Shown one piece after another: positions 4,722 through 58,734 of a stretch of DNA of 64,000 nucleotides (the first letter of the stretch is position 1; each line of letters starts with the position of its first letter). Origin of the DNA: Cetorhinus maximus (lineage: Eukaryota). The stretch lies in the NCBI RefSeq assembly GCF_964194155.1, contig NC_135909.1:62001-126000 (forward strand), in the 5' to 3' direction. A model generated the notes under the pieces. It searched no databases. It was not told where the DNA came from and saw only the letters and a list, made by a program, of their open reading frames with translations. Both the position numbers and the translations under genes were made by a program.

Positions 4722-4931
4722 CTTGCCCCAGTCCGGTTTAATTTCAACAGTTTTGCAGCCATCCTCGTAGGCTTTCTGATATTCCCCCTTTTTGGCATAG
4801 GCAGCAGACCTGTTACTGTAAAGTACATGGTTCTTGGGGTCTAGCTTAATGGCTTCACTGTAACATATGATGGCATCAGCTATCTTCCCAGCACTGAGGG
4901 CTTGATTGCCCTTCTCTTTAAGTTCATTCAC
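4722..4931 (-). CDS. STIP1: STIP1 coding exon 2 (210 nt), TPR1 domain
   Basis: [70 protein letters not shown]; T-rich acceptor AG 4933-4932, donor GTatgt 4721-4720. Confidence 0.97.
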
Positions 4932-16110: not shown

Positions 16111-16405
16111 ATGGAGAAACTCGTCGTCGGGGTCGGCCGGAGCCGACTTCATTGGAACGGGCGGCCGTTGGTGTGGGCGCGCGGCGCGGCTTCGAACGCG
16201 TTCCGAGTCCAACGGTCGCCACGGCCGGCGGCCGGCGGCGGCTTGGCGCCTGCGCGCTGGCTGTTGCCCGCCGGCCGCGGGCCCCGCCGCCCTCACTCGC
16301 TGCCGTCGAGCGCAGCGGCCGCTGGCGTCTCCACGTCGCTCGGCCGCATGTCCGCCAAAGGGTTTACCCCCGCTCACCTTGACGCCGACTGGAAAGTGGC
16401 GAAAA
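16111..16405 (+). CDS. MACROD1: ADP-ribose glycohydrolase MACROD1, coding exon 1 (mitochondrial presequence-like N-terminus)
   Basis: gcgATGG start; Arg-rich, acid-poor leader ending ...MSAKGFTPAHLDADWKVAK (cf. MACROD1 DWKEAK); phase-1 donor A|GTAAGT at 16406. Confidence 0.85.
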
Positions 16406-18453
16406 GTAAGTATTTCACCGCCACTCCACACAAAGCTCCAAGTTTACCAAAATATATTTCACTCATGTTGCTGGAAATAAAAGTTGGGTCAAAGGGGCGG
16501 GTTTTAAGGAGTGTCTTAAAGGAGAAGAGCAGCTGAGGGAGGGAATTCCACAGATTAAGGTTTAGACACCTGAAGGCAATGGTGAGGCCTCGGGCATCAA
16601 GTGATGTGCAAGAGGTGACTATTATTGGTCATCATTTCCGATCAATATTTGTTAATCAGTTTTACTATAAACACTAGCACCATCTGGTCACAGGCTTTTA
16701 AACTCTGTGGAATGAACCTTTGCCCATGACCACCTTTTGCATATTTACAAACCACTTGCATTCATCAAGTCAACATGGGCATTATTATTTACTACTTTAC
16801 CATAAAACAGCAAAACCCGAGAGGAACTGTTAAAACGAAGGCACGTTGTAGCAGAGGTAGGCCATTCAGCCCCTTCGAGCCTGCTCTCCCATTCAGTAAG
16901 ATCATGGCTGCTTTGATTGGCGTCTCAACACCCACTTTCCTGTCTGCCCCCCCCCCAAAACCCTTGAGTCCCATGCTTTATTTAGATAGTCAAGCCTAAC
17001 TCTGCTTTGAATAAATTCAATGACCTTGCCTCCAATGCTTTTGGGGGAAAGGAATTCCATATACTGATGACTCAGAGAAAAAAAAATCCTCATCTCCTTA
17101 AATCTCCCTCTTCTTCTCAATCTCCTTCTTAATCTCCCTCTTATTCTTAAACTGTGTCCCCCTAGTCCTAGTCCATCCCCTACAAATGGAACCATCCTCC
17201 CTATCTACCCTATCAAGCCCCCTCTCAGTATCTTACATGTTTCAATAAGATCATTTCTCATTCTTCTAAACTCCAATGGTTATCGACTCAACCTGTTCAA
17301 CCTTTCTTCATAAATTAAGCCCTCATCCCAGGAATGAGTTGAGTCGACCTTCTCCGAACTCCTCTGAACCAAATTATATCTTTTTTTTCAAATAAGGGGA
17401 CCAAAACTGTACACAATATTCCAGATGTGGAATATAAAATAAAATAAGAGTTAAAATTACTGTACACTCCTTAATCTCTTGACCTCCTCCCTGTCTTATT
17501 CAGGGACTTTTTATAGTTTATGGAATTCAAAATAAAATCGACAACAGGCAGGTAAGCAGAACACTCACTTTGCCTCACCTCCTCTCCTCACACATGCAGT
17601 TTTTGAGTTTAAAAAGAAACAATAAATTTCATCTAAATAAAGCTTTAGAAATCCACCATATTCTCCAAAATTATTGGAACAAAAGTTACTGAATATCCAC
17701 GGCTAGAAGCTAAAGAAAAATATTTCACCACTACAGTTGTCTGGTACTTCGCCATCATGGGAATTTATGTACACTGCAAACGCTCAGGACGTAACATTCA
17801 AAACATTGTAAGGTCACAGCTATGGGTAAAAAGTATCAAGTCCAATTGCAGGGATTTGGAAGAGTTTTTCAAGTGAAAACTTTAATGAAAGTATAAAAAT
17901 ACAGTAATTTATCAACTTATTGTGCGACATGTCATTTGTTTTGGTCCCCATTTGCACTTTAAGTTAACTAAGTTTGTGGGGAGAGGGGGCTGCAAGAGAC
18001 TCAGGTGCTGTGACTCGGGGAAGAAAAATTTGTCCAGGGTTCCTGGGACTGACTGCTGACTGTACATGTGTGTGGGCATGAGGGGTGTCGACTCTGCCTT
18101 AACATTCAGGAGTGCAGTAACAGAGAGGCCACTGGACTAATGATCTGTGAGTTCAAATCCCATCATGGCAGTTGGGGATGGAATTTAAATTTAGTCTTGG
18201 AATAAATTCTGGAATAAAGCTAGTATCATCAATGGTAACCGTAAAACTACTGGATTGTCTTAAACACCTATCTAGTTCACTAATGTCCTTTAGAGAAGAA
18301 AATCTGACATCCTTGAGCCAACATGCCTCTGCAGAAAGAGGTACCGTAAATATTGGTCAAGACTTGCAATAGGCTGTTTATGGTTGGGTCCAGGAGGAAA
18401 TTCAGGGCCATAAATACAGAACCTTTTTTGTTTTTGTTTTTTTTTCCAAAAAG

Positions 18454-18555
18454 AGCACTTGGAGAAAATTGATCGCACAGAAAGACGAAGTTACTACAAA
18501 GCTGAAAGATTTGTTATCCTCGATGAGATTCAAACATGGAAAGACTTTGCTGAAG
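18454..18555 (+). CDS. MACROD1: MACROD1 coding exon 2 (102 nt)
   Basis: (K)HLEKIDRTERRSYYKAERFVILDEIQTWKDFAE; long T tract plus AG 18452-18453, donor G|GTGAGT; phase 1-1. Confidence 0.9.
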
Positions 18556-21975: not shown

Positions 21976-22551
21976 TTAAGGATTTTTTCTGTGTTTAATA
22001 GAAAACAGCTTTTTAACCATAGTTTTTTCACTTCCGTGGTTTGCACTCGACACATCCTTCTCTAGGCTTTGAGCTTGTTGAGTGGAGATTAATCCGCTTT
22101 TGTAACATTCCAGTTCTTCCTGTGCAACAAGCAACTGAGCCTTCAGTTTGTTGCGTTCTTGCAATACATCCCTCAGTTCCTGGAGTGTGAAACGTGGTCG
22201 ATTTGGGTCGTTAACATCCACCACTAGTTTGTCCGGCCCAGTGTTCTGCTGCTTCTCTGAATCGCTTCTCGCCTCTTGGAGTTCTCTCCGAAGTCTTTCT
22301 GTTTCCGTCCTCAGGTTGTCGCGTTCAATTTTCAGCGTATCTGCTGTAAGGTTCTGCTTGTCCACCAGAGACTCAAATATTTCTAGAACTCTGATTATCT
22401 TGTACTGCAGCTCAGAGACTGTGTGGTTGTCTTCCAAGCTGCTGAGTTTGAATAAATCACGGCCAATGATGTAAGACATATCGTAGACATCTTCAGCTGT
22501 GAGCTCGAATGGATCTTTGTCAAATGCTGATGTAGGATTCAATTCCTCCAT
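21976..22551 (-). CDS. RILPL2: RILP-like protein 2, intronless ORF (191 aa) nested antisense in MACROD1 intron 2
   Basis: RH1 motif PFELTAEDVYDMSYIIGRDL...IIRVLEIFESLV, RH2 motif DPNRPRFTLQELRDVLQERNKLKAQLLVAQEELECYKSGL and C-terminal EKTMVKKLF all match RILPL2; no stops or frameshifts. Confidence 0.93.
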   Translation of the reverse strand: MEELNPTSAFDKDPFELTAEDVYDMSYIIGRDLFKLSSLEDNHTVSELQYKIIRVLEIFESLVDKQNLTADTLKIERDNLRTETERLRRELQEARSDSEKQQNTGPDKLVVDVNDPNRPRFTLQELRDVLQERNKLKAQLLVAQEELECYKSGLISTQQAQSLEKDVSSANHGSEKTMVKKLFSIKHRKNP

Positions 22552-22699
22552 CGATTTTCCTTCCAGTGTCTCCTCACTCTCCTGCCAGACTAAAACTGAA
22601 AATAAAACCAGCTGATCATCTAAAATGAAGAACTGTTGTTTTACAAATGGCTTACTTCAGAAAAGCTTCACTCCATAATATTCATTATAACATAGGCAG

Positions 22700-37900: not shown

Positions 37901-38024
37901 GAGTGGCGCCTGTGTCCACTGTTTGTACCTAGAGTCTTTTACTCAAAAATCAGTTCTGATATAGCTTTGTGATGGTTGTTCTGTAATGCAATTATTTAAT
38001 TTTGTCTACTATTTATTTTTGCAG

Positions 38025-38141
38025 AAGAGAAGTTTAAACAACCGTTAACTCACTATGAGAAGGACGACGTTATGAATCAAAAGCTTTCACTCTTGCAGGA
38101 GGACATCACCAAGCTGGAAATTGATGCAATCGTCAATGCAG
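38025..38141 (+). CDS. MACROD1: MACROD1 coding exon 3 (117 nt), start of macrodomain
   Basis: (E)EKFKQPLTHYEKDDVMNQKLSLLQEDITKLEIDAIVNA; acceptor ttttgCAG 38022-38024, donor G|GTTGGT; the DITKLEIDAIVNA signature is diagnostic of MacroD-type domains. Confidence 0.94.
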
Positions 38142-38749
38142 GTTGGTACATTGGTACATGACATGCGGGCAAATGTAATCAATACTGTACCACAACTGGA
38201 TTCAATCCTGACCCATCCAATCGATGGTGCAATCCACAGTCCTACAAAAGCACCCACCTGGTTAAAGGCAGAAAGAAAGGAGGGAAAAACCTTTCCCAAT
38301 TTCAGGAAAACATTGGTAACTTGCTGTCATCCTAGACTTGGCACTTAGTCTCTGGCAGTCTGGACCTCAAAGTTAAGGCAATTCACTCCTTTTTTCACTT
38401 ATGTTTCTTCGAGCTGTTTGTGCCGTGTTCTTAGTTTTGTGGGAAGGATCATTTTTAATGCTGTGTTTCATTGTTGGATTATAATATTTCCGAAACCACC
38501 ACACCATGACCTGTTAGCATCATCAACTTGAGTTAGATGCCAAATTAATGGGAGTATAGATTTCAACATTATATTTGGCCAACAAAAACTATATTTATGA
38601 ATCTGTTTGATGTGTGGAGAGGAAAGTTTCCCCAGCCTAAAATAACCAAACGATTTACAGAAGAATGTCGGTGCTCATGATTCATGACAGTCTCTGCTAA
38701 CAAACAATTTACCCCTCCAGCTGAAGAGGAAATAATTAGAATCAGCCAA

Positions 38750-41110
38750 GACGGATTTCAGAAAAGAAGACTGTGCTCAAAACCTGAATCGTTGGACAAA
38801 AGGATTTCTTGCAGAGGTGACAGATATGATGGATGTAGTGTACCTGGACTTTTGGAAAGCCTTTGATACCACACAGCAGAACAATGGAGAAAGGGTTGAA
38901 TGAATCAAAGGGTTTGAAATGAGGGGGAGAGTAGTAAATTGGATTAAAAATGGAGAGTAGAAGATAAGGACAATTTCTCAGAGCTGTTGGAAGTGTGCAG
39001 TGGTGTCCTACAGGCTTTGGTTTGTGACCTCCTCCATTGACTGTGTATGTAGGGCTAGAGGCAGCGCTGCACAAATTTACACACAATAGTAAAATAGAAG
39101 GCATGGCAAATAATTCTGAGGATGAAAGGAAGCTACAAGAATGGAATGGACGAAGAAGTGGAAGATGGAATTTAATATCAGTAAATATGAGGTGGTTAAA
39201 CAGGGGGAAAAGCTGGGTGATTATACCGGGAGAAAGTTAGGTGATGTGGAACAGTGGAGGGATTTGGGGTTTCCGGTTCACGAGACCTTACAAGCAGCAG
39301 CACGAGTAGATAAGGCTATAAGATGCTCGGGGTATAAAGGGTTTATGGTGAGAGGCATTGGATATATATATTGTCATGAAACTCGAATACGTACCTCAGA
39401 GGTCGGAAACTCCAGCTCCAGTGGGCCTCGGGCCTTCTGCACATGCGCCGGCCGAGAAATAGCTGCACATGCGCAGTTCGTGTCCCGTACTGTCTTTAGG
39501 CAGGAGCTGGCCTGCGAACCTACACAAAAGCAAAAAAGCAAACAAGAGAAACGGCGCGAAACTGCAGGCCAGGTGACCTGAACCGGACCGCCATTCTAGA
39601 GAAGGTGTGCCGAGGAGCAGAACACAGGAGGGGGATAGGGAAAGGTCTCAGAAGAAAGTCCCAAGCAGGGCCAAAGACAGGGATCAGAAAGAGGTCCGGG
39701 AAGTCAAGATAAAAGAAAGGAACTAAACAATCGGCTCCGAGTTAAAGAGAGAGCCACAAGGATTAGACTTGAAGCAAAGTGGGCTCGACAGAAGCCCTGA
39801 AGGTTGGTGACTCCTTACTGCGGGCCTTTTGGAGCAGTGGTGTTTTGCTTGGCACAGCCGAAGATCTGAAATTGTGCTTGGAAGGTGAAGCTTGAGTGTA
39901 CTATGAGATTCAGGGGAAAGGATTCTTAGAAGGCAAGATTGAAACCCTGGAGGTGGATCCTTGTGGAAGCCATCGGAGTGGGAGTGACGTTTGAAGAGAA
40001 TTCTAAGGCGAGATCTTTAAATGTGGAGATTGAAATCCCTTGTGAGAAAGACAAAGTTTCAGTGAGACTGGTTGGCTCACAGTGTGACAGATGTCTGGGT
40101 GGGTTGTTGAGAAATCCGTGGAATCTGCTTTTTCGCATCTGTCATTACGTTGTGTGTCTGACCACAGTTGACCTATAAATTCACATGTATCTCAGACTTA
40201 CCTGTAACATTAGAGTATAAGATAGATATTGTAAATTATTTTATCTTTCTGAATTTGTTTAGGTCTGTAAAGATATTGCTGGGGTAAAAAGAATAGTGTG
40301 AGTTTAAATCATTTTCTTGTGATGGTATTGAGATCTTTCCAACCTTTTTGTCTGGTGTAATATTGTTCATTTTTCTTGTTTAATAAGTGCTTTATTCTTT
40401 GTGTTAGAAGTTTACCAGCAGACTCCTGTGAATTTGTTCAGTAGTTTTTCTCCGCTGTTTCTAAAAAAAACAAAAGTTAGGATTTAACAAGCCAGGTTTC
40501 ACTCTGGGATCTTATTTGTCCAGTATTACCAAGCTGGGATCGTAACTATATATATACATTTTTTAAAAAGATGTCATGGTGAATCTATGTAAAAACCTTA
40601 GTAAGACAAGATTTGGGGTACTGTTTGCAGTTTAGGCTCCACACTGTAGGAAGGATGTTGAGGTAACATAGAGTGTATAGTGCAGATTCCCAAGAATGCT
40701 GCCGAGTACAGCATGTGGAAACACATAGAAAGATTTTGAAAAATTGGGACTGATTTTGTTTGGAGAATTGAAATTATGGGGTGATTTTAATAGAGATGTT
40801 TTAAATTATGAAAGGATGGGGCATAATTGGTAGAAGTATTCACATGATTGAAGTCTAGAATGGGGGTCATAGCTATAAGGTTAAATGTATTTTTTTATGA
40901 ATAGGGGACAGGGGCAACCTTACTACACAGAGCTGTGAGGCTTTGGATTGCAGCATCAGAGTTAGCAACTGAGGCAGAGACCATGTCAACTGTTAGAAGT
41001 AGGTTAGAAAGAAAGGTGGTTGAAGTAAAGCGGATTTGGGAACAGAGAGGGCACAAGGGATTAGAACTACTGCTCCGGTGGAGGATTAGCACCAACTGAA
41101 TTATATTGTA
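38750..41110 (+). mobile_element. Old decayed CR1 LINE interrupted by an LTR-like insertion
   Basis: Remnants of VYLDFxKAFD (about 38838), KWKMEFNISKYEV (about 39157), and after the insertion DVMVNLxKxLVR (about 40570). Confidence 0.75.
39372..40547 (+). mobile_element. Probable solo LTR (about 1.18 kb) inserted in a (TA)n tract
   Basis: Starts TGTCATGA, ends TCGTAAC(T) (imperfect terminal inverted repeat); TATATA on both sides; the CR1 sequence resumes collinearly across it; no gag/pol seen. Confidence 0.7.
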
Positions 41111-42111
41111 ATATCTGTGTAATTCTTTGTAACTGGAATTGTCTTCTTAGGTGCTTGTCAAGTTGCTTTTAAAGGACTGAAAGAACTTCATATGCACCTA
41201 CTGTTGGCACTTCATTTCAGATGGCGATGATTGGTATCTAAGCTAATTCTTTTTCATACACATGACTGCTACTCCTACCATTCCTATCCATTTCAAATAA
41301 TCTGTCTAACTCGAGTGTATCCAATCCCCAAATCGTTTTTAAAAATTCAATCTCATTCCCCCAAAGCTGGATTTTAATTGGAAAGCAAACACCTGTCTGG
41401 TACCTTGGACAGCTCTGATCAAATTTGTTCTGGAGCACTGTGTTAACAATCCATTCACATTAGGGGCACAGTCAAGCTAGAAGGGTGATATCTGCATTGC
41501 ATAACACTCTGTGCATTAAAATATCTGGATAATAGTTTAACTTCTGGGATGGTGATGGTAATGCGGCTTTGCCAGCCATGCAGTTTTGTAGCAGGCAGTC
41601 TGATTTTTCTGATCAACCCTTTCTGGAACTTCTAAAATGTGGACCAGTTACAAAGTCTGATCTTTAAAATAAATATAAATTTTTCCATGAAATCTGTGTC
41701 TCTCAATACAGAGGCATGAATGAGTGATTATGATTTTCACTAAGTTCTTATCACCTGCAAAGAAAATATGTTTTAAATGGTTTTCAACCCTATATCGCAC
41801 AAGAGAGTTCAAACTGCTGCTGCCCTCCACCATGTTAGATGTAAAGTGTCATTTGCCACCTTTGAGATTTTGACACCATGGGCAAGTGGGTGGCAGGGTG
41901 GGTGGGGAGGAGTGATGTGCTCACTAGATGTGGTGTGAACAGAGGTCCTCACCAGCCCTGCATAATTCTCCTTGCCCGAAAGAATTTCTCATGATGTTTA
42001 GCAATCTGATGCAATGTATCCCTCTACTGCACTATTGTCATCTTGATCACAGCATTAGCCTCTGTTCCTTTTAACGCCAAAATGTCTTAAAAAGTTTCAT
42101 ATCTGTGTTTA

Positions 42112-42560
42112 TCAGCTGTAGTGCAGTTGGTAGTGCACTCACCTCTGTGTCGTAAGGTTTCAGGTTCAAGTCCCACTCCAGGGCTGGAGCACAAAGATCA
42201 AAATTGATGTGCTAGTGAGCAGTGAGGGAGTGCCACACTGTTGGAGATTCCATTTTTTGGATGAGATGTTAAAACCAAACCAGGCCCTATCTGCCTGCTT
42301 GGATGAATATGAAAGATTCCACTACACTTATAAGAAGAGCAGGGGAGTTCTCCCCGGTGTCTTTGGACCAATATTTATCTCTCAATCCACGTCATTAAAA
42401 CAGATGATTTGGTCATTATCACATTGCTGCTTGTGGGAGCTTACTGTGCACAACTTGGCTGCCGCAGTTCCTACATTACAAGTGACTACACTTCATAAGT
42501 GCTTTAATTGACTGCAAACCGCTTTGACACGTCTGGTGGTTGTGAAAAACCCAAGCCTTT
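42112..42560 (+). mobile_element. tRNA-derived Deu-domain SINE (SacSINE1/AmnSINE1-like); further copies at about 4290-4550, 20330-20575, 37000-37090, 47305-47767
   Basis: A/B-box-like head (GGTTCAAGTCCC); central GAAGAGCAGGGGAGTTCTCCCCGGTGTC...TTGGCTGCC...CCTACATTACAA; L2-like tail CTATATAAATGCAAGTCTTTC in sister copies. Confidence 0.75.
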
Positions 42561-44979
42561 CTTTTGCTTTTGCATTCTCACAAAGCCTCCCTCACACTTG
42601 CATCCCACATGCTGTATATCCTATGTAATCCTAATGTAATCTGCTGTACACCTTGTAACAACGGCAGCTGGTGGAATTTAAATTCAATAAATAAGTTGGG
42701 AATATAAGGAAAAGCTGGTCTCAGCAATAGTGACCATGAAGTTATCATCGATTGTTATAAAAACCCATCTGGTTCACTAATGTCCTTACACGGTCTGGCC
42801 TACATGTGACTCCAGACCCACAGAAATGTGGTTGACTCTTAACTGCCCTCTGAAATGGCCTAGCAAGCCATTCAGCTCAAGGTCAATTAGGGATGGGCAA
42901 CAAATGCTGGTATTGCCAGTGACACCCACACCCCGTGAAAGAATTTTTAAAAAGTGATCTCTTGGTCCTAGAGCAGCAATTTTAGCAATTGAGAGTCAAT
43001 AGGTAATGTCACTATACAAAATTTCAAATTGAAACAATTAATTAAAACTCTGATATAAAATCACTATAAAATAATAAATGTAATACAATTTAACACATCC
43101 TTCCAAATTAAATTTAAAAAAATATATATTTAGTTTTCAGTTCTCAAGGACTGGTTCATTTTTAATTCTGATCTTGTTTTAAGATTAAGGAGCAGAAAAT
43201 TGCAATTTATTTTCAGGAGGTTAGCTCTGCATGTAGATGAAGGGTTATGATCTCTTGCCTCTGAGCTTCCCTTTGTCACCTGTTACTTGAAGGTTTTCAC
43301 TGGCTATGTTTGCTGGAGAAAGATCGCAAAATCACAATTACTGAATTACTGGTTACCCTGAGTCATGAACTCTAAATAATTAAGCAGGTTTGGAAGATCA
43401 CATCTGTCTCTTTAAGCTCAACTCCAATCCTCCAAAAAATATATTTTACTTTGAAGAAGTCTAGAATTTTTAAAAAATCTGAGCTGCAAGATTGTGTGAA
43501 ATTTGTGGACTTAATAGATTTCTTCAAATAATGTGTCTGTTATATATCAAATGAATTCAGATTAATACCTTGAAACTTGTCCATTAAGTATAAAGCACTT
43601 TTTAAAAAATTAACGAATAGAACATTTTCAGTTCAGGCTATGTGCTGTAGTTCATTAGTTGTGACCTCAGATGAACTGATAGTTAATAAGTTATATTTGT
43701 CATTCAGTCTGCTCACCTTTTTCCACACCTATTCCTACTTTCCTGAAGCCACTGACTCCTGCAGATGCATAGCTTGCTGGACATAGCTCTCTGTTCCCAT
43801 AACTCAAGACGCTATTCTTCACGTGTGAATTTAGCTGGTAAGGCTATTTGACAATTGGGGGCATTGCAACTGAACTCAACTGCATTTATGTGTGTGCATA
43901 TCTGAGCAGGTGCCACAGAATAGCAATGGGAATCCTGGCTATTTTTTTTCCCTGTCCTTGGCTGACAGTCAGGTGAATTGTGGCACCACCTCTACCACCC
44001 AAGCTGTGATCAGCATTGATTTAATTCAAGATGGTGGTAGGTATGTGATAACTGGCCTGAGTGTCCCCGGGTTAGGAAAGGGAAAATTCAGGCATGGTCC
44101 CCAATCCTGAAGGCTATATGGAGGCCTTCTTCCCCAAACTGAGGCACTGAGATCAATCAGGTCAGCAGCACGGACCAGAGGTTGAACTTTCGACCTTCCA
44201 CATCGACATTACTGCTGAACAGTTGAGAACTTAGCCACCATTTTTAAAAATCATCTGTAAATTGCAGATTGTAGATTGAAAATCAAAGGCCTATTTAAGT
44301 TAATCACAATGGTTCTGAAAAGAACTGTGGAAACAAGGCGATCCCTTCATTCGAAAGGGAAAGCAACAAGAACATGAGATGGGTGAGGAAGATAATGGAG
44401 AGAACAGACCCTGAAATGGACCGTGAATGGGATAGAAATGCAGAAGGCATGCTGTAACAGGGTGAAAGGATACCTTGAGGAGAGGAGAAAGGCAGAGTGC
44501 ATGCTGGATCATATAAGTTGGGAAAAGGTGAAAAACCACAAATGCAGGAAAACTGTGCTCAAAACATCAAAGGCTGCAAATGGAAAGCATTTCAATCTGT
44601 CCACAACTGGTTTCCATCTGAAACATTGATATCTCTCTCTCTCTCTTTCAGGAACTGGCTGACTTATTCATTCCAAAACCTCCTGTTGGATAAGTTTGAA
44701 ACTGATAAATAGAGTTGAAATACATGTGTATTTCCATGGAATTAATAGAATTGAAATACATGAGTGTTTCTGTGGAATTCTGCTCACCTCACCAGAAATA
44801 ATATCATAATTGCAATTGGCACTGTCACTGAAAAGAGAAATTGAGAGCAGTAATGAATACAAATGACAGTATTTCATTAATTTTACTATCACTCACAGCA
44901 TTCATCATTGTTTTCCTCAACCCAACACCATTTGTCAGATTTGGAATCTCACTTCTCTCTCGGCTGTACCAAATTATTA

Positions 44980-45504
44980 TTCCGGGCTGAATATTGAATT
45001 CAACAACTTTAGATCTTAAACTCCCCCTCCCCCCATCCCCACCCCGTTTCTCTCCCCCCCTTTTTTTTTCAATAATTTATATAGATTCTTCTTTCCCTAC
45101 CTATTTCCATTATTTTTAAATCTAAAACTAAAACCTTGTTAGTCTGTCCACCCCACCCCAACTAGAGCTGTACTTTGAATATCCTGTCTTCCATTCTTAA
45201 TTAGCACTTTTCTTAGACAAATATCACCACCTTCAACACCTCTTTGACCCTTTTGTCTGTGACATCTTTTGATTATCTGTTCCTATCACTGCTTATCTCC
45301 ACAGTCACCACACCCTCAACGTCTCTCTTTCCACACCCCCCCCCCCCCCCCCCCCCCCCACCTTAAACCAGTTTATATTTCTCCCTTCTCCTAACTATGC
45401 TTCAGTTCTGCCGAAGGGCCATGAAGGCTCGAAACGTTAACTGATTTCTTCTCCGCCGATGCTGCCAGACCTGCTGAGTTTTTCCAGGTAATTCTGTTTT
45501 TGTT
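44980..45504 (+). mobile_element. 5'-truncated Penelope-like retroelement: last codons of GIY-YIG ORF, 3' region and hammerhead-like motif
   Basis: SGLNIEFNNFRS* at 44981-45019 (GLN motif typical of PLE endonuclease C-termini); hammerhead-like fold 45402-45444; TSD CCAAATTATTA at 44969-44979 and 45505-45515. Confidence 0.8.
45402..45444 (+). ncRNA. Minimal type I hammerhead ribozyme-like motif (variant core)
   Basis: Stem I TCAGTT/AACTGA; core CTGCCGA-A; stem II GGGCC-ATGAA-GGCTC; GAAAC-GTT with palindromic ACGT in place of helix III. Core deviates from CUGANGA. Confidence 0.55.
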
Positions 45505-47079
45505 CCAAATTATTACTGTTTGTCGAGGCTGCAGATTTTCTGAGAGGGGGTAACTCAATCATTTTTTTATCATCCTTTTTAATTGTGAGGATGACATTTT
45601 TTTCTCTCTCAGATGCATGGGCAAGAGACTGATCGGGGCTCCTCCTACAGTGTTCGAGGACTGGTCACATGGAGGTCCACAGAAACATCGCTTGGGATGA
45701 TTATGCCTTGAATTTTATAGGGAAGCACCAAGTCTCTCCTAGGCACTTCAACTGAGGCATTCTGTAGTGCTCTAGAATCCGCACAACTCCGGGCTGCTAA
45801 CTAATTAATTTGAAATGAAACTTTAATTTAAAAACCTACCTGACTGTGAAAAGCAAATAATGACCAGATGAACCTGCTTTCCGTTTCCAGCATTATAATT
45901 TTTATTTCATATTTTCAGCATTTACGAGATTCTCCTTATTCCAGTTCTGCTGGATATTGCCCAGCATCCTTTACACATTTCTGTCCTCTGAATACCCTTT
46001 CTCACAAACCATTTTTCCAGTTTGCCTTCTATGTTTCTGCCCATGGAACTAGGCCGTTTAGCAGGGAAATCATGAAGCACTTTTTTACCAACAAATGGTA
46101 GCAGAAATCTCTTCCCAAGTGGGGATATGAATCAAAGGCAGGTAAATAGAATTGAGGTATAGATCAATCGTGTTCTAATAAAACGGTGCACTGGGTTTGA
46201 AGGGTGAAATGGCTTCTTCCTGTTCCTATCTCATTTGCAGTCACTTTAGTTTTCGATTTCCTTTATCCTTTGCATCCATCTCATCTTGTTGCTTCCTCAT
46301 TCGAATTTACCATGCTTTCATATCTTCCAAAATAAATTTGTACATTAGTTTCAATATACCATGCATTCCCTAATTTTATTATTTAATCTAAACTATGCTC
46401 GACAGAACAGTTTACTGTTCCGAACTTAATCTCTGGTTATACCAAAAATCTTTCTTTGCTTTCTGTTCTGTTTATTACTATCTCAGGCATCAATTCACTT
46501 TTGTTCAGCCTTCCTGTGCTTCTCATTTGGCTTCTATCTTGAAACCTTTTTTGCTTTATTTTGAATGCATTAATTTCAGAAATGTTTTGAATATTGTTAC
46601 AAATTGTGGAAATACTGCCAAATGCCTGCTGATGGTGCTGTTGAGCTGGCAAAAAAAAAAAAATCTGTTTTCCTTAGCTGGCTCTGTATTACCCTTTCCA
46701 AATTCTAAATCATCTTGTTCTCGAGACCAGTGATTTTAGATGCACAAAATGTCAAGACACAAAATGTATCAAGGTCTGCTATAAATCATCAACTGTGCAA
46801 ATGTAGAGTAAGGTGGTTGCATTGTAATTGACATCCAAAGTCCCTCTCCATTTGGGAAAATTAAAGGCCGGTTCAAAAAAATGGATTCTTTCACGAGCGT
46901 TTCATTTTTATTAACCTGATTTAAGTATTCTTTGCACAGTAGCCCAGATCAGTTACTCTGTAAGCAGAGCAACTCTGTAACAGCCCAAAAATACACAGAA
47001 AGAATAGAAACTTCTTATGCTCTGTGCAGACAACATACAGGGTGAGCAATGCACATTCCTTTTGTCCTTGTAATAAGTA

Positions 47080-47205
47080 TGTGCGCGTGCACCACACATG
47101 CACAAACACACACACACAAACAAATGTGTACACACGCACAAACACACACATAAATGCGTACACACACACACAAATGCGCACGCGCACACATACACACACA
47201 CACAT
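47080..47205. repeat. Imperfect (CA)n-rich simple repeat
   Basis: Interrupted CA runs with CAAATG(T/C)G spacers. Confidence 0.85.
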
Positions 47206-48181
47206 CTTGCCGAAGGCATTTCTGATGGCGGGGAGATGGAGAAGGGAGAAATGCATAATGTGATGTATCAGGATGTGGAATGTAATGATAAAAGCATAAA
47301 GGTGTCAGCTGTACCTCAGTTGGTAACACACTCTTGAGTCAGAATGTTGTGAGTTAAAATCCCATTCCAGAGAATTGGGCACAATAGCTAGGCTAATACT
47401 TTCAGTATTGTACAGAGGGACTGCTGCCCTGCCAGTAGTTGCCATCCTTCAGATGATGTGTTAAACTGAGGCCCTGTCTACTTTCTAAGGTGAATGTAAA
47501 ACATCCCATGGCCACTATTTCAAAGAAGAACAAGTGAGTTCTCCCTGGTGTCCTGGCACAAATATTTATTTCTCAATTAACATCTCAAAAACAGATGATC
47601 TGCTCATTATCACGTTGCTGTTTGTGGGAGCTTGCTCTATGCAAATTGGCTGCCACATTCCCTACATCACAACAGTGGCTACACTTCAGAAAGTACTTCA
47701 TTAGCTAGAAAGCGCTTTGGGATGCCCTGAAGTCATGAAAGGTGCTATAAAAATGCAAGTCTTTCTTTATGATAATCGAACTAATACTTCTATGTTGTTA
47801 CAGGAATAGCTGTTGTTTAAATTGTGAGTATTAGTGATCTCACCATATTGGGATCATTTGTTGAGCAAGAAGGAATTAAATTAACATTGAGAATGGAAAA
47901 CATGGAAGGAGTTTCTTTAGCTTCAATAATTCGCACGTTAGTAATTTCCTTGTTTGAGTCTCTTATTTAACACTCTTTAACCCCACTATTCCACTATGCC
48001 CCCCCACCATCACTATGTTGGTTTAAGGTTACAGTAGAATTACAGTTTTTGGTAATTTTCTTTCAAAATGGATTTCTGTTGGGAATTGGATTAAAGGGAT
48101 CTTTGTTTTCATCTGCTGCTTTGTGTCTGTGCTCCCAAATTGACTCCCGCGCTGGCTCAGTCCAGATGCTCTTTTTTATAT

Positions 48182-48419
48182 CAAAAACAAAACAAAAACA
48201 GAATTACCTGGAAAAACTCAGCAAGTCTGGCAGCATCGGCGGAGAAGAAATCAGTCAACGTTTCGAGCCTCCATGGCCCTTCGGCCATGGAGGCTCGAAA
48301 CGTTGACTGATTTCTTCTCTGCCGATGCTGCCAGACTTGCTGAGTTTTTCCAGGTAATTCTGTTTTTGTTTTGTTTTGGATTTCCAGCATCCGCAGTAGC
48401 TTTTAGCTTTTTGTTTTTA
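48182..48419. mobile_element. Penelope-derived fold-back insertion: 95-bp near-perfect hairpin with 14-bp TSD
   Basis: Arms 48184-48278 / 48283-48377, one mismatch, loop CTTC; TSD GCTCTTTTTTATAT at 48168-48181 and 48420-48433. Confidence 0.88.
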
Positions 48420-49789
48420 GCTCTTTTTTATATGTTTTGTGCTCATCAAGTTGAGGGATGTTCGTGCTGAAAGTCTGGAAGGAAAATACATAGTTCTTGA
48501 AATCCACAGTATCATAGTGTCATAGAATCTTGCAGCTTGGAAGGAGGCTGTTTGGCCCATGTATCTGTGCTAGCTCTTTGAAAGAACTCTTCAGTTAGTC
48601 CCACTCCCCTGTTCTTTTGAATCAATTGAATCTGCTTCCACCCACCCTTCCAGGCAATGCTTTACAAATCAGAACAACTCACTGTGTAAAAATGTTTCTC
48701 CTTATCTTCCCCTTGATCAACATAGAAAAGTAAGGCCAGTCCGAGGACTTTTTAGTACACTTTCATGATTTTCTTTTTTTATTTCTTGACTACAGATGTA
48801 TGTCTCAAAAGTTATCATTTCAAAATGATTATTCTATCTCAAAACTCACTTTCTCTCAACTGGCTTGTTTTGCCTGCGGCTGCTAGACTTTATGCTGATG
48901 AATATATGTGAGTCTGCTTGGATAGCTTCGGGACTATTTACCATACCTTTTGTCATGTATTTTTTCCATTTGATCTGTTAAGTCTTTTCACTGAATCCCT
49001 GAGACCCAATTCTCCTCTCTGCAATATGTCTGTAAATAGGATTTGACATTTGTATTAAGGCTACAATGTGCCAGATGTATGTGTCAAGCTCCCCTGATGG
49101 CTCAGCTGTTTAAGGTAGAGTGAGTGGTTTGCGTTATCCAGACTGGGAATGGCCCAGATATGAAAAACGGATTGTGCGGGATTAGCTGATCTCAATTGGG
49201 GTGATATCAAGGACATTGCAATTGCCCTCTGCATTACTGGGCTAGTGAGAAATTCATCTAGGTTCCCTGCTTCTGGTCTATTATACTTCAGTGCGTGCTA
49301 GAAGCCATGTGAGACCTGATCCTGCAGGTGCACATTGTCTAAACGTAAAAGTGAAAAATGATTGCTCGATGCCAGAAACTGGATCATTCCATGGAGCCCT
49401 AACCTAGAACAGAGGGTGAAAATTAACAGGAGGAGGATTTTAAAAAAACACTGAAGGTTATTCTTTATCAGGTTCTTTTAAAATGCTGCGGTACCTTAAG
49501 GCCAGTTCCTGTGACAGCACAACCAAGTTCTGCAGATAAAGAGCATGGATTTTGTCGTGGGTTGATCCAATTTCTGAGGACTGTAACAGTGTGGTCTACA
49601 CGTTTATATCTTAAAGAAATTGTAACAGTGAAGAGTGGCACGAAAATAACACAGAAGCTGCTAACAACCTCCAGGCACCATATAATTACAATTGAGAAAT
49701 AATAACATGCAGGATACTGAAGTAGTAGCATTTTACAGCAAAAAAACAAGCAAAAAGCTTGTCAATTTTAATAGGTATCCTCTTATTAC

Positions 49790-50630
49790 ACCCACAAATT
49801 GCGAACACAATTCTCATAAAAGAAGAAACATGTTCATTTAGAGATCACTTTCTTTCCAACCGTAGCCAGAGCATCTCCAACAGTGGCTTCTTTCCCTACC
49901 CCCGCAATGTTATAGCTGGAGTTTGGCCAAGAATTGCTACTTGACTCCTTCCTCTTCCTCAGCTACGCACTGTCCCTTGGCAACTTCATCCAAACCTATG
50001 AACGAGATGACCTCCTGATCCCCTCCACCCCTGTATCCTCTTTGTTCTGCAGACCGTCCACTTCCACCTTGGTACCATTGCCCACTTTAGCCCTGCCTCA
50101 GCCCATCAGTGCTGAAATTATTACCCCTGCCCTTTTTACCTCCAGTCTCGACTATTCCTGTGCTCTCCTTGATGGCCTCCCATCCTCCATACTATAAACT
50201 AAGACTCTGCTATCCCCTTCCTGTTCGACACTAAATCCTACTCATTCTTCATTCCATACAGACCTATATTGATATCCTGCCCCCAATGTCTTGAATTTAA
50301 AATTCACAGCTCCGTGTTTAAATTCCTTTATGGCCTTGCTTCTCTCTATCTCTACAAACTTCTCCTGCAGCTGTAAAATTCCCCTCGAAATCTCCATTTT
50401 CCTGACTTTGGTTCTTGGGCATGGCTCTTCTCTTTGCCTCACAATTGCTGTCTATGTCATCAGCCATCCGGTCCCCATTGTCTGAAACAGCCTCCCTTAA
50501 TCAACCCACATCTCTGCCATTTAAGAGCCTCCTGAAAACTCACCTCTTCGATAAAGCTATTCAACACACCTCCCAATACCTCGTCCTCTGCCTCAGTGCC
50601 CATTTTTGACTGATCATGAAGCACCTTGGA
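49790..50630 (+). mobile_element. Decayed L2 LINE
   Basis: Remnant FTSSLDYSCALLDGLPSS and FKSLLKTHLFDKA, typical of L2 ORF2 C-termini. Confidence 0.7.
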
Positions 50631-51764
50631 GCCTAATTCCTATAATACAATTGTACTTTTTTAGACCACGATACAAGAAAAAAAATACACTTAATGATAT
50701 ACAGTATATTAAATCACATAAAAGTTGAACATATAGTTCTGTAAGAAATTGAACTAAAAGCTTGCATTTGTATAGCCTTTAACAAAGTAAACAATTTAGA
50801 AATTTAGAAACTTAATTTACAAAGATGTCCCATTAGCAGTAGAACAATACTATTGTTCAAACATGGTTACTGTTTTAAGCCCTGCAAAGCAGCAATAGAC
50901 CAGTATCTGAGAACTGGTCTTTTATAAGCTGTCCAAAGCTTGTGAAGGCCTTTGTTATTTTCCCACTGTTTGCTGTAAATATCAAATGCTGTTTTGAAAT
51001 ATGGACACGCAATTGACAGCCATTTTTTGTTCTTTAATGTGTTTTTAAAAAATATATTTTTTAAGATCGAGTTTGCCAATGTGGGGGAGAAACTCTGTTT
51101 GGCAAGTGATACCAAACTGGAGAGCTGGAGAACACTACAGGGGCTGTAGTGTTACCTTGTCTAATTTTACCACTGACGAACACATCAGCTTGAGATGGAA
51201 AACACTGAACAAAAGAGGCTTTAAATATCTTTCTCCACAGATGTTGTCTGACCTGCTGAGAATTACCAGTGTTTTCTGTTTATAATTTAGATTTCCAGTA
51301 TCCGCAGAGAATTGCTTTTGTGTCCGGCTATAAAATCAATAACTATTGCACAGCTTCTTACCTTAACTCATTCTTTCCCGCAACTTCAAAACTATGAACC
51401 TCCTTACTTCCCCCAGTCAATTCTTCATCCGGCACTTCATTTCATGTCCAACTTTGCAGAAGACAGTAAAGTTGGAGGCGTAGGAAATAATTTTGAGGAC
51501 CTAAGAAAACTCCAAGCAGATAATATGATGGTGGAGTGGGCAGAAAAGTAAAAGATGTAATTTAATATCAGTAAATGTGAAGTGGTTTAAAAAATGTGCT
51601 ATACTTTGAAAGGGAAAAAGCTGGATTATGTGAAGGAGCAGATGAATTTGGTTTTTCTATGGATAAAGCCATAAAAAAGTCAAGATATAGAATATTAAAA
51701 TCAGGATGTAAAGCTGAATCTGTATAAAACTTCAGTGAAATGAGCATTTTTGGGCTCCATACTG

Positions 51765-51982
51765 GAGGAAGAAAGAGGAGGTGCGGTGAGGTGAGTGATG
51801 GGGATGGGACTGCCAGGAAGAAGAGGAAAGCCTAAGCCCAGATGGAAGGATGCAGTGACAAGAGACCAAAACACAGCAGGATTGGAAGAAGAATGGGTGA
51901 CTGACAGGAGGAGAGGGAGAAGGGTGTTCAACCAAAATGTGGCCACCCTAAGTAAAATGGGAAAATCTGAAAGAAGAGGAAG
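51765..51982 (+). mobile_element. RTE-clade (Rex3/Expander-like) LINE 3' end inserted in a decayed CR1 (about 51440-52300)
   Basis: LPGRRGKPKPRWKDAVTRD...DRRRGRR resembles the RTE C-terminal GxRxxGRPxxRWxDxVxxD motif; GAA-rich tail; ACTG repeated at 51761 and 51983. Confidence 0.65.
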
Positions 51983-54900
51983 ACTGTGGGAAGAATGTTA
52001 AGATAATAGGAAACACTACAGACTCACTAGGATGCTGCCTAGTCTTGAGGAAGTACAAATATGCATAACTCAGGGTTGTTTCCTTTAGAACAGTGAAGAT
52101 TATTGGGTGGAAGTGAAGCCAAATAGAACAGAACAGATAGAAACTGACCATTTCCAGCAATCAAGGAATCTACAACGAGGCAGGTGAAACATTTTTTTAT
52201 GTACACAGGGGTTCTGAGGCTGTGGAATGTTAGTGATTGAAGCAGAGACTGATCTCAACATTTCCTAATAGATTAGTTGAAAAACGCTGGACACACTTGC
52301 CTGAAGGATGCTGCAAGCAGCAGCCTGATCTTGCACTCCTATTAGCTGACTGCATTGAAATGATGTCCAATGTCCAATATTGGTGGAGGTGTTGGGCATC
52401 ACCATTCAGGCACAGGAAATGTTCTCTGCATCCCAAATTTCTCGGCCATAAGATTAAGTGTGTGGAAAAGGAAAATCTGGAATAAATTGTGATGGTAGGG
52501 CAAGGCTCATCTTTCATGTATGCTCTGCCCGAAGGCAGGTCCTTAGCTCTTTGTCTGCTGATCCTTCATCCTGAGCCATTTTTCTTTGCAGTTTTCTGTC
52601 AGTGCTGGTTTGCCATTGCCTTCCACTCTCAGGCGCAGGGTGAGGAGGCAGGTCTCAAGTCTACCTCGGTTGGAACAGGAATTGAACCTGCGCTGTTGAT
52701 GCTAATCTTAACCATATGGCTAGTCATCTAAGCTAACTGGCCCCCAGGGCAAAGGAGCAGAGGTTTAAATTAGTAAAAGGCGGTTGGCGGATATCAAGAA
52801 ATTATTCTTCAAACAAGAAATAGACGCCGAAGTAGAATAGTGGTTGGAAGCCTTGGAATTGTTTAAGAAACTCTTGGATATTGTAACTGGGTGACCTTAG
52901 GATTTTTCTACCCGAATGAATTAAGGTGATCCAAAGGGCCCTCCTCATGTGTTATCATCTTGTAATTCACTGTGAACTTTTCCCTAAGTGAAAGAAAGAG
53001 AAAGACACAGGGTTTAGAAGGAAAAAGAAGTAGAAACAGAATTGTTTGGCTGAGAGGCAGGCAGGCAAGAGGTTTCTGTTAATGTGGCTCTCATTCCCTC
53101 CCTGGCTATGTAAAAGAAAACGATGTAGATTGATGTCCTTAGATTTTGTTTTCTCTGCCATTCTGTGGAGAAATGCCCAATTTTTCCAGTGTTTTGGCTG
53201 CAATCGAGAATTGGTCTGCATGAGAGACCAAGATTGTCTGAATCAATATGTAAATTTGCTATTTGTTTTAAAAATACAATTGCATTCGGTCACAATTTAC
53301 CTGATGATTTATCTATTAATAAATATGTGTTTAATCATCAGCGTCAAAGTTTATTTTATCTGAATGAATCATCAGCACTTAAAAGAACACAAAGCATGTT
53401 ATGCTGATGGCGTGTTGAATGTGCTTATTTCACATTGTAACTTGAAATTTAATCTCTGATTTGTCATGCTTCATCAGTCCCCTAACCCTATATTCCTGTC
53501 CCTGATTTCCAAGGCAGTGTGATCCCTTTATCTAAAGTGTAAAGAAGGTACTAATGAACTGGATTGTGTTTCTAATTGAACAGAAACTACAATTTCTAGT
53601 TCATTTAGACTAAAGGATAAAGTTAAGTGAGTGATTGCTGCATTCCCATGCGGAGGGAAGTTATTGTGCATTGTAGGGGGAATTAGGAATTAATTCTTGT
53701 GCAGCTCCGGTTCTTGGGGCCGTTCCTGCTCTGAAAATTCAATTGGGAGTTGGCTAAAACCATTGAAAGAAAGATAAAAATCAGATCAAAGGAACATTAA
53801 TTTATTTCTCAGCTCTGGTGGCATTTTATCTGACTAATACCACTATCACAGCAGTCTATAAATAAGTAGTTTCTTCTTCAAACTCATGAAATAAAAGACA
53901 GGTCCTGAGCAAATAAAAATTCCCTCTTTCGTTGCTGAGCTGGGCATGTTAAAAAAAACTGCTGATGGCAAACGGTGAAGGATTAAAAGTTCAGGAGACC
54001 TTGGACCTATAGTCCTATGAGCTGGGTTCAATTGGTTGATTTTGAGAAAAGGGTTGTAGCAAGATAATGAGCATGACAGGGCTAATGCTATACAGATGGT
54101 TAACGATGTGATGGCTATTGAAGAGCCAGAAAGACTAAGTGCAGATGTCACTGCATTTAAAGCCCTTTTAATTAAAAAAAGAGAGATGCAGTGGGTTAAA
54201 CACAAAGAACTGAGGGTACGTTCAGCTTCAGCACATCACAACAAAGTTCCCTCTTCCGGTGTCACTCAGGATTTATTGGACCCCCTACTCTTTAACAATG
54301 TGTGCGGCTGACTTTAACAGGCATGTATCTGTAGTTATACTAGCAGGCCTTTGTAAGAAGACAAAGTAACTGTTTTGCCCATTACCATCCATTTAGAAAG
54401 TGTCTCGTTTTTTAAAGAGGTAGCTATACTTTTTTCCTCTAGAATTTGTTGAACTTTTCAATTATAATGAAAACATATTTATGTTTCTTTGTATTGGAAA
54501 TTAGGGAAAAAATAACTTTTTGAAAAAATGTGGATAATATTTAAAAGCTTTTATTAGTTTGTGGAACATTTGACATGAAAAATCATTCGGCGCCTATTTT
54601 TCATTATCACCATTTTGTTGGTGAGGAGGGATTTTGTATAAGAGATGTGGAGATACCTGAAAGATGAAGGATAAGTACTAAAATATAGGAACATATGAAC
54701 AGATGAGGCCATTCAGCCTCTGAGGTCTGTTTCGTCATTCAGTGAAATCATGGCTGATCTACAACATAACTCCAATTCCTCACCTTTGCCCCATATCCTT
54801 CAATACCTTGGTTAACAAAAATCTATCAATCTCAGATTTAAAATTAACAGTTGATTTAGCATCAAGTATCGCTTGTGGAAGAGAGTTCCAAATTCCTACC

Positions 54901-56666
54901 ACCCTTTGTGTGTAGAGTGTTTCCCTGAAAGATCTGGCTCTAATTTTTAAACTATGGCCTTTCGCTTTAGACTCCCCAGCCAGCAAAAATAGTTTCTCTC
55001 TATCTGTTCCCTTTAATATGTTAAACTTGGACCAAATCACCCCCTAACTTTCTAAATTTCAGGGACTACAAGCCTAGATTGTATAGCCTCTCCTTGTCAA
55101 TCCATGTGCAATCCTTCAGTGCAAGCAGCGAGTTATTTTCTACTTTGGTTAAAATTGTTTCTGACAGTGGTGAGTTACTCTTTGAACTGTGTTTAAAGGA
55201 GATAAGTGGGCAGACATGAGTCACATTGTTTGGTGTGAGGAATAATTCATACTGTTGAGTCATAGAGAAAACTTAATAGCATGTCTGAGAAACAACAAAA
55301 GGAGTGGATGACTATCAGTCCACATAGTTGTTTTTCTTAGAAAGGTGTTTGGCTGATTTTGAAATGTAGTAGCTATAAGGGGGACAAAATCATTTGAAAT
55401 TATTTCAACCTAAGAGAATGGATTAAGGAACAGCAATTAGATTTTTATAGCTATGTCTTTAGGTATCTCCATCAAGTTTTAGATGTTGCACACTGTATTA
55501 AAATGACAAGTCACAGTTGGACAGACTTGTGCATGCAGATACAAAATGGAACAAGCCATGAATAGATATAGTTAGAAAGAAAGGTGGAAACTGTGTGAGG
55601 CAAAGTCAAGGAGAGGGTTATCCAGAGGGAAAAAGCCAGAAACAAACCCAGCTTTAATTGGCAGCATGTTTTTAAATGCCCATGATCTGTTTCTCAGTCT
55701 GCCTGATACTAAATATTAAAGTGGTAGCTGTTGGAGAATGCACTGCAATGCTCCCAAACCTCTTCCCCAGTCATTCTCTAATGGTCAAACCGTCTCTTCA
55801 GGCCATACCGTCCCATTCCCAGATTGTAGAATGGTTTCCAGACCTTGAGACCCTTACTCTCCATTCTGTCGATCGGATCGTAAGATTCATCACTCAGTAA
55901 TCCCATTACTAGCCTCAATAATAATCGAACCCCACTCCCTCCATCCCAGTGCCCTAGACCCTAGGAATGCAAAAATGTCACCATTAGCACACTAACTTTG
56001 AAGGTGCCTGGAATCTTTTTTACAAGTGGCCACAATACAGTTGAAAGACATAGAAGGTTCTAACCTTAGATTGGCCATCTGATGGACCAAGATTCACAGG
56101 TACAGTAAGAGGGAAGAATATTGCTCAGATTGTGGCTTTCTGTTTAAGCAGTGGCCTTCCTGGAACTAATGTAAACAATGCAGAAATGTTGTGACTGCTG
56201 AGAGCTGTGCAAAATGCCTTAGGTGATGTGTCTCCGATTCTTAGTTTTGTATGATGAACATGTAGCTTTTGGTTTCACTTCAGATGGTTGATATTTGAAA
56301 AATCAAGGTTACAAATCCTCTATGTTTATACAAAGCAGATTCAGCAACACTGGTGCAACTCGTGCATGCATGCACTAAATTATGTTTGCAACTTTTTATT
56401 GTTCTGACCACAGTGTTGAAGCATTGTCTTTACAAGCCAGCAATGTCAAACATGTAACCTGTCCAGGAGCAGAGCCAAAAGATCAATCCAGGAGCAAGTG
56501 CCACCACAGACAAAAATTCACTTGTGCCACCACAAGCACTTTCACCCCACTTCAGAGTAAAATAATCTCCCGCAGAGGGTCTTGGATGGCACTGTTGCAG
56601 CATAGTTTATGCTGTAAGATAAATGGGGTATAAAATGAATGACAGAGCAGCCTATTGCTGAGGGGT

Positions 56667-56711
56667 TATTAACATTAGTGAATTATCTTCTTCCTTTTTG
56701 CACAGGTAAGA
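56667..56711 (+). other. Candidate recursive splice site (3'ss immediately followed by 5'ss) in MACROD1 intron 3
   Basis: TATTAAC (branch-like) ... TATCTTCTTCCTTTTTGCACAG|GTAAGA; AG 56704-56705, GT 56706-56707. Confidence 0.5.
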
Positions 56712-58734
56712 AATAATCCCTGAAAAGCCTTTCATACCACTTTATATTTAGCAGTTTCTCAGAAATCCTCCTGTGTGTTAATGCAATTTCAAACTGTGTG
56801 CAGTCCAGGAAGCACGTCCCTGTTGCCTGTATATATTATTTGTGGAGCTTTGCTCTATGTGCTTAGAACCAGCGGTTGATGTGCATGCCTTAAGCACTCC
56901 TCGTCAGTAATGTAGGCTTAAGATGAAATGAAAGGTTTCATTTCAGTTTCCACGTCTAATCCGTTGGAGAGGGTGGGAACTTCAGCAACAGCCTAATTGA
57001 AGTGTTCCATTTCTTTAGGTATTTCTTTGAAGTGAGAGTTGTACTCGCTGATCTCTGGGGAATTGGAACTCTGAATAAATCCTTCTTCGTTTTTAAAAGT
57101 AATGAACAGTAGTGTTGACGGGGACTTGAGTTTGAGAGATTCTTTAGTAATGAACTTGGGTTCTGATGAAGTAAAGAAGCACGTTATTTTTCTTTGATTG
57201 TATACGTTAGGGCAGAAACTAAGAGGCTTCGCTGCTGGTACATTGCTTTAAGAATTGGCTGCAGAATTGGGGTTAAAATGCTGTAGCCTTATTTTCGATG
57301 TAATGAAGCTCTGCCAGTCACAGAGCTTTGCATTTTCTGCCTTTATAATCTATTATTCGGTACCTAAGCAAATGTATCATAAATGTTTTTATAATTAGAT
57401 ACCCTGAGTGAAGGACCCTATAGCGTGGGGCACTACCAAAGTTGAAAGATAATACAAGTTAGAAGAAAAAGGTAATCAGACAATGGTGATTAGATGAAAC
57501 CAAGATTGTGGGGTGGAATTGGATTGAACAGTCTGCTGCTATCATGCATTGTGTCAAAGAATGGTAGATTGTTGCTTATTTTTCCCAATGGTGAATTACT
57601 GAAGTAATCACAATTGAAGGGATGAGATACTTACTAATAAGAGGTTAGGTTACTTTCCCCACGGGAAAGGAGAAAAGAAGGTTCAAGGGATTGAGTTAGT
57701 CTTGGCCATTCTTGTGAAGTATTAAACACGACGGTGATACTGAGCTGTACACTAGGTATTTGAAAGAGGAAAAGACAGATTAACGTTTTGGGTGAGACCC
57801 TTTTTCAGTGCTGGATTCTGATCTCACCTGGAACATTAAACTGCCCTTCAGATGCTGATAGAGCTGTGCATTTTCAGAATTCTATGCTTTTTATTTCAGA
57901 TATTTAGCCAGCATTCATGGGTTTTTATTGTTTTCTCGCTTAAGACTGTGGCTGGATCAAAATCATTGGGAGCAGGTAATATCCCACCCTCCCTTCTGGG
58001 TCATGGGGCATTCCACAGAGAGTCTCTTAAAGAATTTTCAGTGTTTATTCAAGGTTTTAATTCTTAACTATTTGTCCAGATATAGGTCAAAGATAAATGA
58101 GCTAAACCTGTGGCTTCCCCCGATAGATCAGAAAATATTGACTGATTTATCTTCTGTAGAGCTCCCCACCCCTTCTGCCCCAACTGCCTTTCTCTAGTAA
58201 TGCATCCTAATGATTATAGAGTGTTAGCGCAGTCTGATATACTCCACTTTAATTCTTTTTGGTTTGCAGTTTGTGATATACTGTGCTTTTAATGATTTTT
58301 GTGTTAAATGGCTAGTCAAACTATGTACTTAATAAAACAGTATTTTAAAAGTTGTCTGTGACATAATTAGTGCGGATTTATGGAATAATTATTAGCAGCT
58401 GAGCATGAAGAAATTGCATGTTAAGAATATGTTATATTACTTTGGAGTTGTGAAATTAACGTGGATAGAGCCATGCGTTGTAATTTGCATGCCATTATGA
58501 TTTATTGATATATTCGCTTCTGAAATATTGCCAGCTACTTTCAAATTCTAAAACTGCAACCAATGGAATTCCATGGTCCTCTTGCCATCAACTGCACTTA
58601 GAAACCTGACTGTTAGGGCAGCGGCAAATGCTCAATTTCTCGGCGGGCCTTGTAAACTGCTGCCAGATTCCTTGATGTCGGTCTGGCTATAGAGACAGGC
58701 TCTGGGTGAAAATGCAAACTGGGGAATGCCACTG

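Follow-up and report, generated by a model that had tools for sequence, protein, structure and literature searches.

A candidate recursive splice site in the 253-kb third intron of MACROD1 of Cetorhinus maximus

The window analyzed here is a 64,000-nt stretch of the 4-Gb genome of the shark Cetorhinus maximus (contig C32, positions 62001-126000). It carries the first exons of MACROD1 on its forward strand, which we mapped by tblastn with P0001, a protein of this species that NCBI names MACROD1-like. Coding exon 1 lies at 16111-16404 (100% identity; its end is approximate), exon 2 at approximately 18450-18554, and exon 3, 117 nt long and ending in phase 1 with GCAG, at 38025-38141 (tblastn match at about 38024-38140). 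How long is the intron that follows? The initial annotation gave it 26 kb. Exon 4, which has 30 nt and specifies the macro domain's glycine-rich loop, lies outside the window at C32:353498-353527; intron 3 therefore measures 253,356 nt and runs far past the end of the window. Exon 5 starts near C32:535941. An FLRT-type gene (LRR plus fn3) is situated antisense within intron 3, at C32:132703-130748 on the minus strand. Two further minus-strand features occur in the window. At 21979-22656, antisense within MACROD1 intron 2, a frame of 226 codons runs without interruption and has RILP and RH1 domains; it may be a gene of RILPL type that lacks introns, or a retrocopy. A TPR-domain exon at 4554-5033 is consistent with STIP1 lying head-to-head with MACROD1, as it does in mammals.

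The site under study spans 56667-56711 on the plus strand, which is the sense strand of MACROD1. A branch-point-like TATTAAC (56667-56673), containing TTAAC, places the branch A at -34; 14 consecutive pyrimidines out of 14 follow at 56686-56699 (17 of the 20 nt upstream of the AG are pyrimidines), and the acceptor CAG (56703-56705) abuts GTAAGA (56706-56711). One additional AG is located at -29, 5 nt past the branch A. This arrangement had been pointed out in the initial annotation and is present as described. Its distance from exon 3, put there at about 18.5 kb, is 18,564 nt from the exon end at 38141, only 7% into intron 3 and 12 kb before the FLRT gene. The description of the surrounding sequence as free of recognizable repeats is likewise borne out: the site DNA is single-copy, a genome search returning the self-match only, and contig depth over 55928-57900 is at baseline. 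One RNA run (X6, 11 million letters) matched here with repeat-like pieces only and gave no coverage at exon 3 or at the site, and run X3 gave none at the site. An Rfam search returned two matches at E<=1, neither of them at the site and both scoring far under the gathering threshold. The pyrimidine fraction is 0.85, which falls inside the span of 0.6 to 1.0 shown by 20 mouse recursive splicing (RS) sites. The yTnAy branch motif is also found in 11 of 30 other genome-wide motif matches.

On joining to exon 3, GTAAGA would give the donor CAG/GTAAGA. We scored acceptors and donors by our own weight matrix, assembled from human splice-site frequencies, and not with MaxEntScan. By this matrix the rebuilt donor scores 7.3, versus 1.8 for the weak donor of exon 3 itself, GTTGGT (38142-38147). 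It also outscores the donors downstream, AGG/GTGGGA at 56973 (+267; score 2.4) and GAA/GTGAGA at 57032 (+326; score 2.5), and no strong donor competing with it occurs in the next 700 nt. A cryptic RS-exon may extend over 56706-57031, with weak donors only after it; a fully matching downstream donor that would delimit a clear RS-exon was not found within about 350 nt. An in-frame TAA lies at 56714-56716, so that a retained product of exon 3 and the site would read ...IVNA-G-K-K-stop.

These features could also belong to a cryptic exon that begins at this acceptor and serves as a poison exon or as an alternative last one. In that case exon 3 would be joined to it and translation would stop after Gly-Lys-Lys, and the RNA would either be spliced on from +267 or +326 and degraded or be polyadenylated before the antisense FLRT gene. 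The very strong acceptor, the in-frame stop and the AATAAA motifs at 57074 and 58331 speak for such an exon, and in the available part of Moon and Zhao 2022 (PMC8797253) 46 of 84 mouse AGGT junction candidates are unannotated exons. Set against this are the rebuilt donor, which is far above both downstream donors, and the state of the first AATAAA, at 57074, which carries a mutation in organism B, a relative with about 97% identity. Moreover, G-K-K follows exon 3 in 0 of the 17 MACROD-like proteins retrieved, which is a weak negative because degraded RNAs are rarely annotated. We regard this exon as distinctly unlikely.

How unusual is the juxtaposition? The acceptor scores 11.1 and, with the rebuilt donor at 7.3, the site totals 18.4, the best of 1,064 sense AGGT in intron 3, where the runner-up reaches 11.1. 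The acceptor alone ranks fourth among the 16,939 sense AGs of the intron, the true exon 4 acceptor counted in. Across 1.73 Mb strand-bases of MACROD1 and MACROD2, no second site combines an acceptor of at least 8 with a donor of at least 6. Under thresholds chosen after the site was seen, chance should yield, in one sense intron of 253 kb, 0.005 sites (11/7.2), 0.02-0.03 (threshold 10) or 0.09-0.13 (threshold 8). Per genome, counting both strands, the expectation is 155 to about 4,000 sites, or 155-650 at an acceptor of 10-11 and a donor of 7.2. Genome pattern searches, whose counts are lower bounds and whose reversed-pattern control is rough, gave at least 53 forward versus at least 47 reversed matches for the motif and at least 31 versus at least 43 for its GTAAGA class, with no excess in either case; the strict GTAAGT class gave at least 13 versus at least 12. 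Comparison of the local with the per-genome rates therefore makes the site unusual for intron 3, yet chance copies are expected genome-wide: the motif is an outlier for the intron and not for a genome-wide scan. The initial annotation had cautioned that such motifs can arise by chance, which holds for the genome (at least 155 chance sites, no excess) but much less for a 253-kb intron in which 0.005-0.03 are expected.

Might the motif, then, be essentially unused, one of a hundred or more such juxtapositions in a 4-Gb genome and singled out for its place in a long sense intron? The per-genome expectation of 155-650 and the missing excess of its class over reversed controls would be explained in this way, as would an A at +6 unlike the validated mouse sites and the failure to find a paralogous or mammalian counterpart. 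Chance accounts less readily for the low local expectation, for the coincidence of sense strand, unique DNA and branch motif with a core intact in organism B and nominal constraint downstream, and for the likely real RS orthologues among the stricter motif matches, which are described below. On balance an unused chance motif seems somewhat unlikely to us.

The comparison with organism B covers 8,637 nt of flanking pieces with 232 differences (2.7%). TATTAAC, CAG and GTAAGA are all unchanged. The 45-nt motif contains two changes versus 1.2 expected (56677 A>T and 56679 T>C) as well as a 3-nt deletion at the tract start (56686); an intact 26-nt core has a probability of about 0.5 by chance. The change at 56677 abolishes the AG at -29, the sole AG between branch and acceptor, and the tract is shorter but still pure, so that the changes are compatible with an acceptor. 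Downstream, positions +1 to +300 hold three substitutions versus 8.1 expected (nominal P 0.04, for an interval picked after viewing the table), and low divergence extends over 56689-57073 with three substitutions in 385 nt versus the 2.7% background, which after scan correction is not significant (P 0.083). This pattern is compatible with constraint and, coming from one relative with low power, is not proof of it. The same comparison bears on a further explanation, in which an upstream exon missing from the annotation, such as 56414-56705, has GTAAGA as its donor and a pyrimidine-rich end that is incidental. A moderate acceptor (score 5.0) does lie 292 nt upstream and the donor is strong. However, a branch motif, 14 straight pyrimidines and CAG are the signature of an acceptor, and the upstream 300 nt carry seven substitutions versus 8.1 expected and thus no constraint. 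We consider an upstream exon highly improbable.

The paralogue MACROD2 (contig C14) has an intron 3 of 143,858 nt that also hosts an FLRT gene and begins, as in MACROD1, with the donor GTTGGT. The context of this donor, GCAG/GTTGGTAC, is identical in MACROD1 (window 38138-38149) and MACROD2 (C14:9442507-9442518), though non-consensus. There is no comparable site in shark MACROD2 intron 3, where the best sense total is 12.2, and when the MACROD1 site with 700 nt on either side was compared by blastn with shark MACROD2 (380 kb), the best match had E 0.44. Three human MACROD2 sites, listed in one of the catalogues discussed below, presumably all fall outside MACROD2 intron 3. The initial annotation had looked to conservation among cartilaginous fishes and in the MACROD genes of other vertebrates for a decision, and the answer is divided: the core is kept in one relative, but neither shark MACROD2 intron 3 nor the junction-supported human sites searched provide a counterpart. 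Among annotated proteins, truncated or site-containing isoforms were absent from 8 matches out of 29 candidates, from 1 match out of 3, and from cluster members. Three cartilaginous fish have annotated isoforms that skip exon 4 (P0009, P0005 and P0012); such forms are likely to be impaired in ADP-ribose binding.

Sibley and colleagues reportedly listed about 435 putative RS sites in 2015. Four other human and mouse catalogues were searched, and in their available parts no MACROD1 site with junction reads appears. Zhang 2018 (PMC6110456), as far as its accessible parts go, reports 342 human RS candidates, a median of 329 kb for introns with saw-tooth coverage, and ENCODE junction reads for 60% of conservation-filtered putative sites. 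In the same material human MACROD1 is not found in the candidate or saw-tooth tables, and at least nine sequence-only putative sites are given for its intron 3, of which those 12.7 and 15.7 kb past exon 3 have PhastCons values of 0.52 and 0.58 (PMC6110456). Bass and Salzberg 2026 (PMC13622621) gives 3,022 human sites, with three junction-supported MACROD2 rows in Table S2, and a MACROD1 row was not found in the workbook. The gene name MACROD1 was also not found in the supplements at hand of Hoppe 2023 (PMC10156609) and of Moon and Zhao 2022, which may use identifiers or images. Searches of the literature found no recursive site in MACROD1 or in cartilaginous fish; the Sibley 2015 supplement could bear on novelty. 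The statement in the initial annotation that no description was known for MACROD1 accordingly stands for junction-supported sites in the catalogue parts searched, but has to be qualified by the presence of the human gene in the sequence-only list of Zhang 2018. A putative human MACROD2 AGGT at chr20:14094343 (hg19), in intron 3 and 28 kb after exon 3 with PhastCons 1.0, was weighed as a homologue but set aside, there being no row for it in the candidate tables searched and no strong site at that place in shark MACROD2.

The mouse data permit a closer comparison. According to the available part of Moon and Zhao 2022 (PMC8797253), 15 of 20 validated mouse RS sites have AGGTAAGT and none has AGGTAAGA; the MACROD1 site is AGGTAAGA, with A at +6, so that 0 of 20 share it, a difference that reflects a tendency and not a strict rule. 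The same excerpts place mouse RS sites in introns 1-2 of long brain-specific genes, with host introns above 51 kb, and state that for half of the sites downstream intermediates were not seen (PMC8797253). In its length MACROD1 intron 3 agrees with these long mouse host introns and with the human saw-tooth introns. The RS-exon model and the zebrafish cadm2a case are treated in the accessible parts of PMC5126111 and bioRxiv 2025.08.14.666599, and a lungfish preprint, as far as available, holds that ubiquitous fixed RS sites are not needed for giant introns. The label "zero-nucleotide exon", under which the site was first put forward, is a term from flies; in vertebrates the accounts have a cryptic RS-exon begin at such a site.

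Do sharks possess such sites at all? The strict GTAAGT pattern, with its at least 13 hits (three in one tandem cluster), identifies 11 distinct loci among the matches listed, and two of these 11 are followed, in the same orientation, by ankyrin genes downstream. The ankyrin gene on contig C21 is ANK3 (100% to Callorhinchus ankyrin-3) and that on contig C1 is ANK2. The ANK3 site (C21:36266689, plus strand; L113:4990) combines a TACTAAT branch motif, a pure tract and CAG/GTAAGT. It precedes the common exon 2 by 369 kb and an alternative first exon by 231 kb; the human ANK3 RS site, from the part of Zhang 2018 available (PMC6110456), is 229 kb before exon 2. A second AG/GT follows in both species, a GAG/GT 112 nt downstream in the shark and an AGGT 111 nt downstream in the accessible human data. 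The ANK2 site (C1:80439144, plus strand; L114:5045), 364 kb before exon 2, is a CAG/GTAAGT that opens an exon-like stretch of 62 nt, which closes with a short reading frame and a donor. Its human equivalent, at chr4:112904455, precedes exon 2 by 270 kb; the coordinates in the available tables have it open a 60-nt exon (PMC6110456, PMC13622621). The shark sites thus agree with the human RS sites as to gene, strand and order and in the spacing of the downstream donor, and are likely to be their orthologues, a conclusion drawn from position and spacing, not alignment.

It is therefore likely, from the genomic sequence, that sharks keep vertebrate RS sites, and the ANK3 and ANK2 sites would date to at least the jawed-vertebrate ancestor. 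The flanks of the two shark sites do not align to each other; that these similar sites predate the duplication of the genes may be conjectured. Motif matches were not found, with either genome pattern, near four shark PDE4 loci, nor was one found near shark ANK1, and searches with Sulfotransfer_2 and Syndecan did not pin down HS6ST and CADM genes in this genome. Further strict matches of tract and AG/GTAAGT form a shortlist of shark RS sites (L115, L116, L117, L118, L083, L098, L109 and C2:111893377), and a simple motif search can evidently supply such a shortlist. Though a by-product, the likely ankyrin orthologues are the firmer result and matter more than the MACROD1 site. As controls they have weak downstream donors too, and differ from it in what it lacks: GTAAGT, human counterparts and purer tracts (12.3 and 13.1).

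If the MACROD1 site is recursive, how would intron 3 be removed? In a first step the exon 3 donor, CAG/GTTGGT, would be spliced to the AG at 56705 by way of the branch A at -34, and an 18.6-kb lariat, the predicted first sub-intron of 18,564 nt (38142-56705), would be released. In a second step the rebuilt CAG/GTAAGA, which outscores the original donor, would be spliced across 234.8 kb to the acceptor of exon 4, past the antisense FLRT gene; this predicted second sub-intron of 234,792 nt ends outside the window at C32:353497. After both steps the mRNA would bear no trace of the site. Were the second step to fail, a stop would be met three codons in, and such RNA would likely be degraded.

We judge the chances that the site is used for recursive splicing, in some if not all of the transcripts, to be about even. 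Constitutive use under selection is unlikely and occasional, near-neutral use rather doubtful; all gradings given here are matters of judgement and not computed posteriors. The stepwise removal proposed in the initial annotation draws support from an anatomy that fits the vertebrate consensus, from the position of the motif as an outlier of a 253-kb intron and from similar motifs at ANK3 and ANK2. It is weakened by the absence of a GTAAGA-class excess, by the +6A shared with 0 of 20 mouse sites, by borderline constraint and by the failure to find a counterpart in shark MACROD2 or among human MACROD1 sites with junction reads. The site is thus a plausible, unproven candidate for a known class and is mechanistically not new; if used, it would add one more example, in a gene and a fish group that our searches had not turned up. 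A bolder version, which we think very unlikely, is that a constitutive site, which only cartilaginous fish possess or which mammals have lost, replaces the weak exon 3 donor by a strong one before FLRT and so controls exon 4 inclusion. If this were true, recursive splicing would adjust the balance between full-length MACROD1 and the form lacking the loop.

Fly giant introns often carry several ratchet points in a chain. The MACROD1 site resembles Drosophila ratchet points in that acceptor and donor stand side by side within a giant intron, but it is the one site of such strength in 253 kb. With the low-level human sites of Zhang 2018 and Bass and Salzberg 2026 it has in common an AGGT, a long intron and a strong acceptor; unlike them, this putative site lies in a gene without a row in those tables. 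Vertebrate RS sites are known, from the available parts of two catalogues, in ANK3, CADM1, CADM2, PDE4D, ROBO2, OPCML, NTM, HS6ST3, LSAMP and CDH4 (PMC8797253, PMC6110456). MACROD1 is not among these host genes, and its site differs from theirs by an A at +6 (AGGTAAGA where AGGTAAGT is typical), by its position in intron 3 instead of introns 1-2 and near that intron's 5' end, and by having no mammalian conservation found. What it shares with them is the essential architecture: YAG/GTAAG after a strong tract and a branch point (by our own matrix, not MaxEntScan), on the sense strand of a very long intron of 253,356 nt, 18.6 kb from exon 3, with a strong rebuilt donor (7.3) that beats those of the RS-exon and an early stop if that exon is retained.
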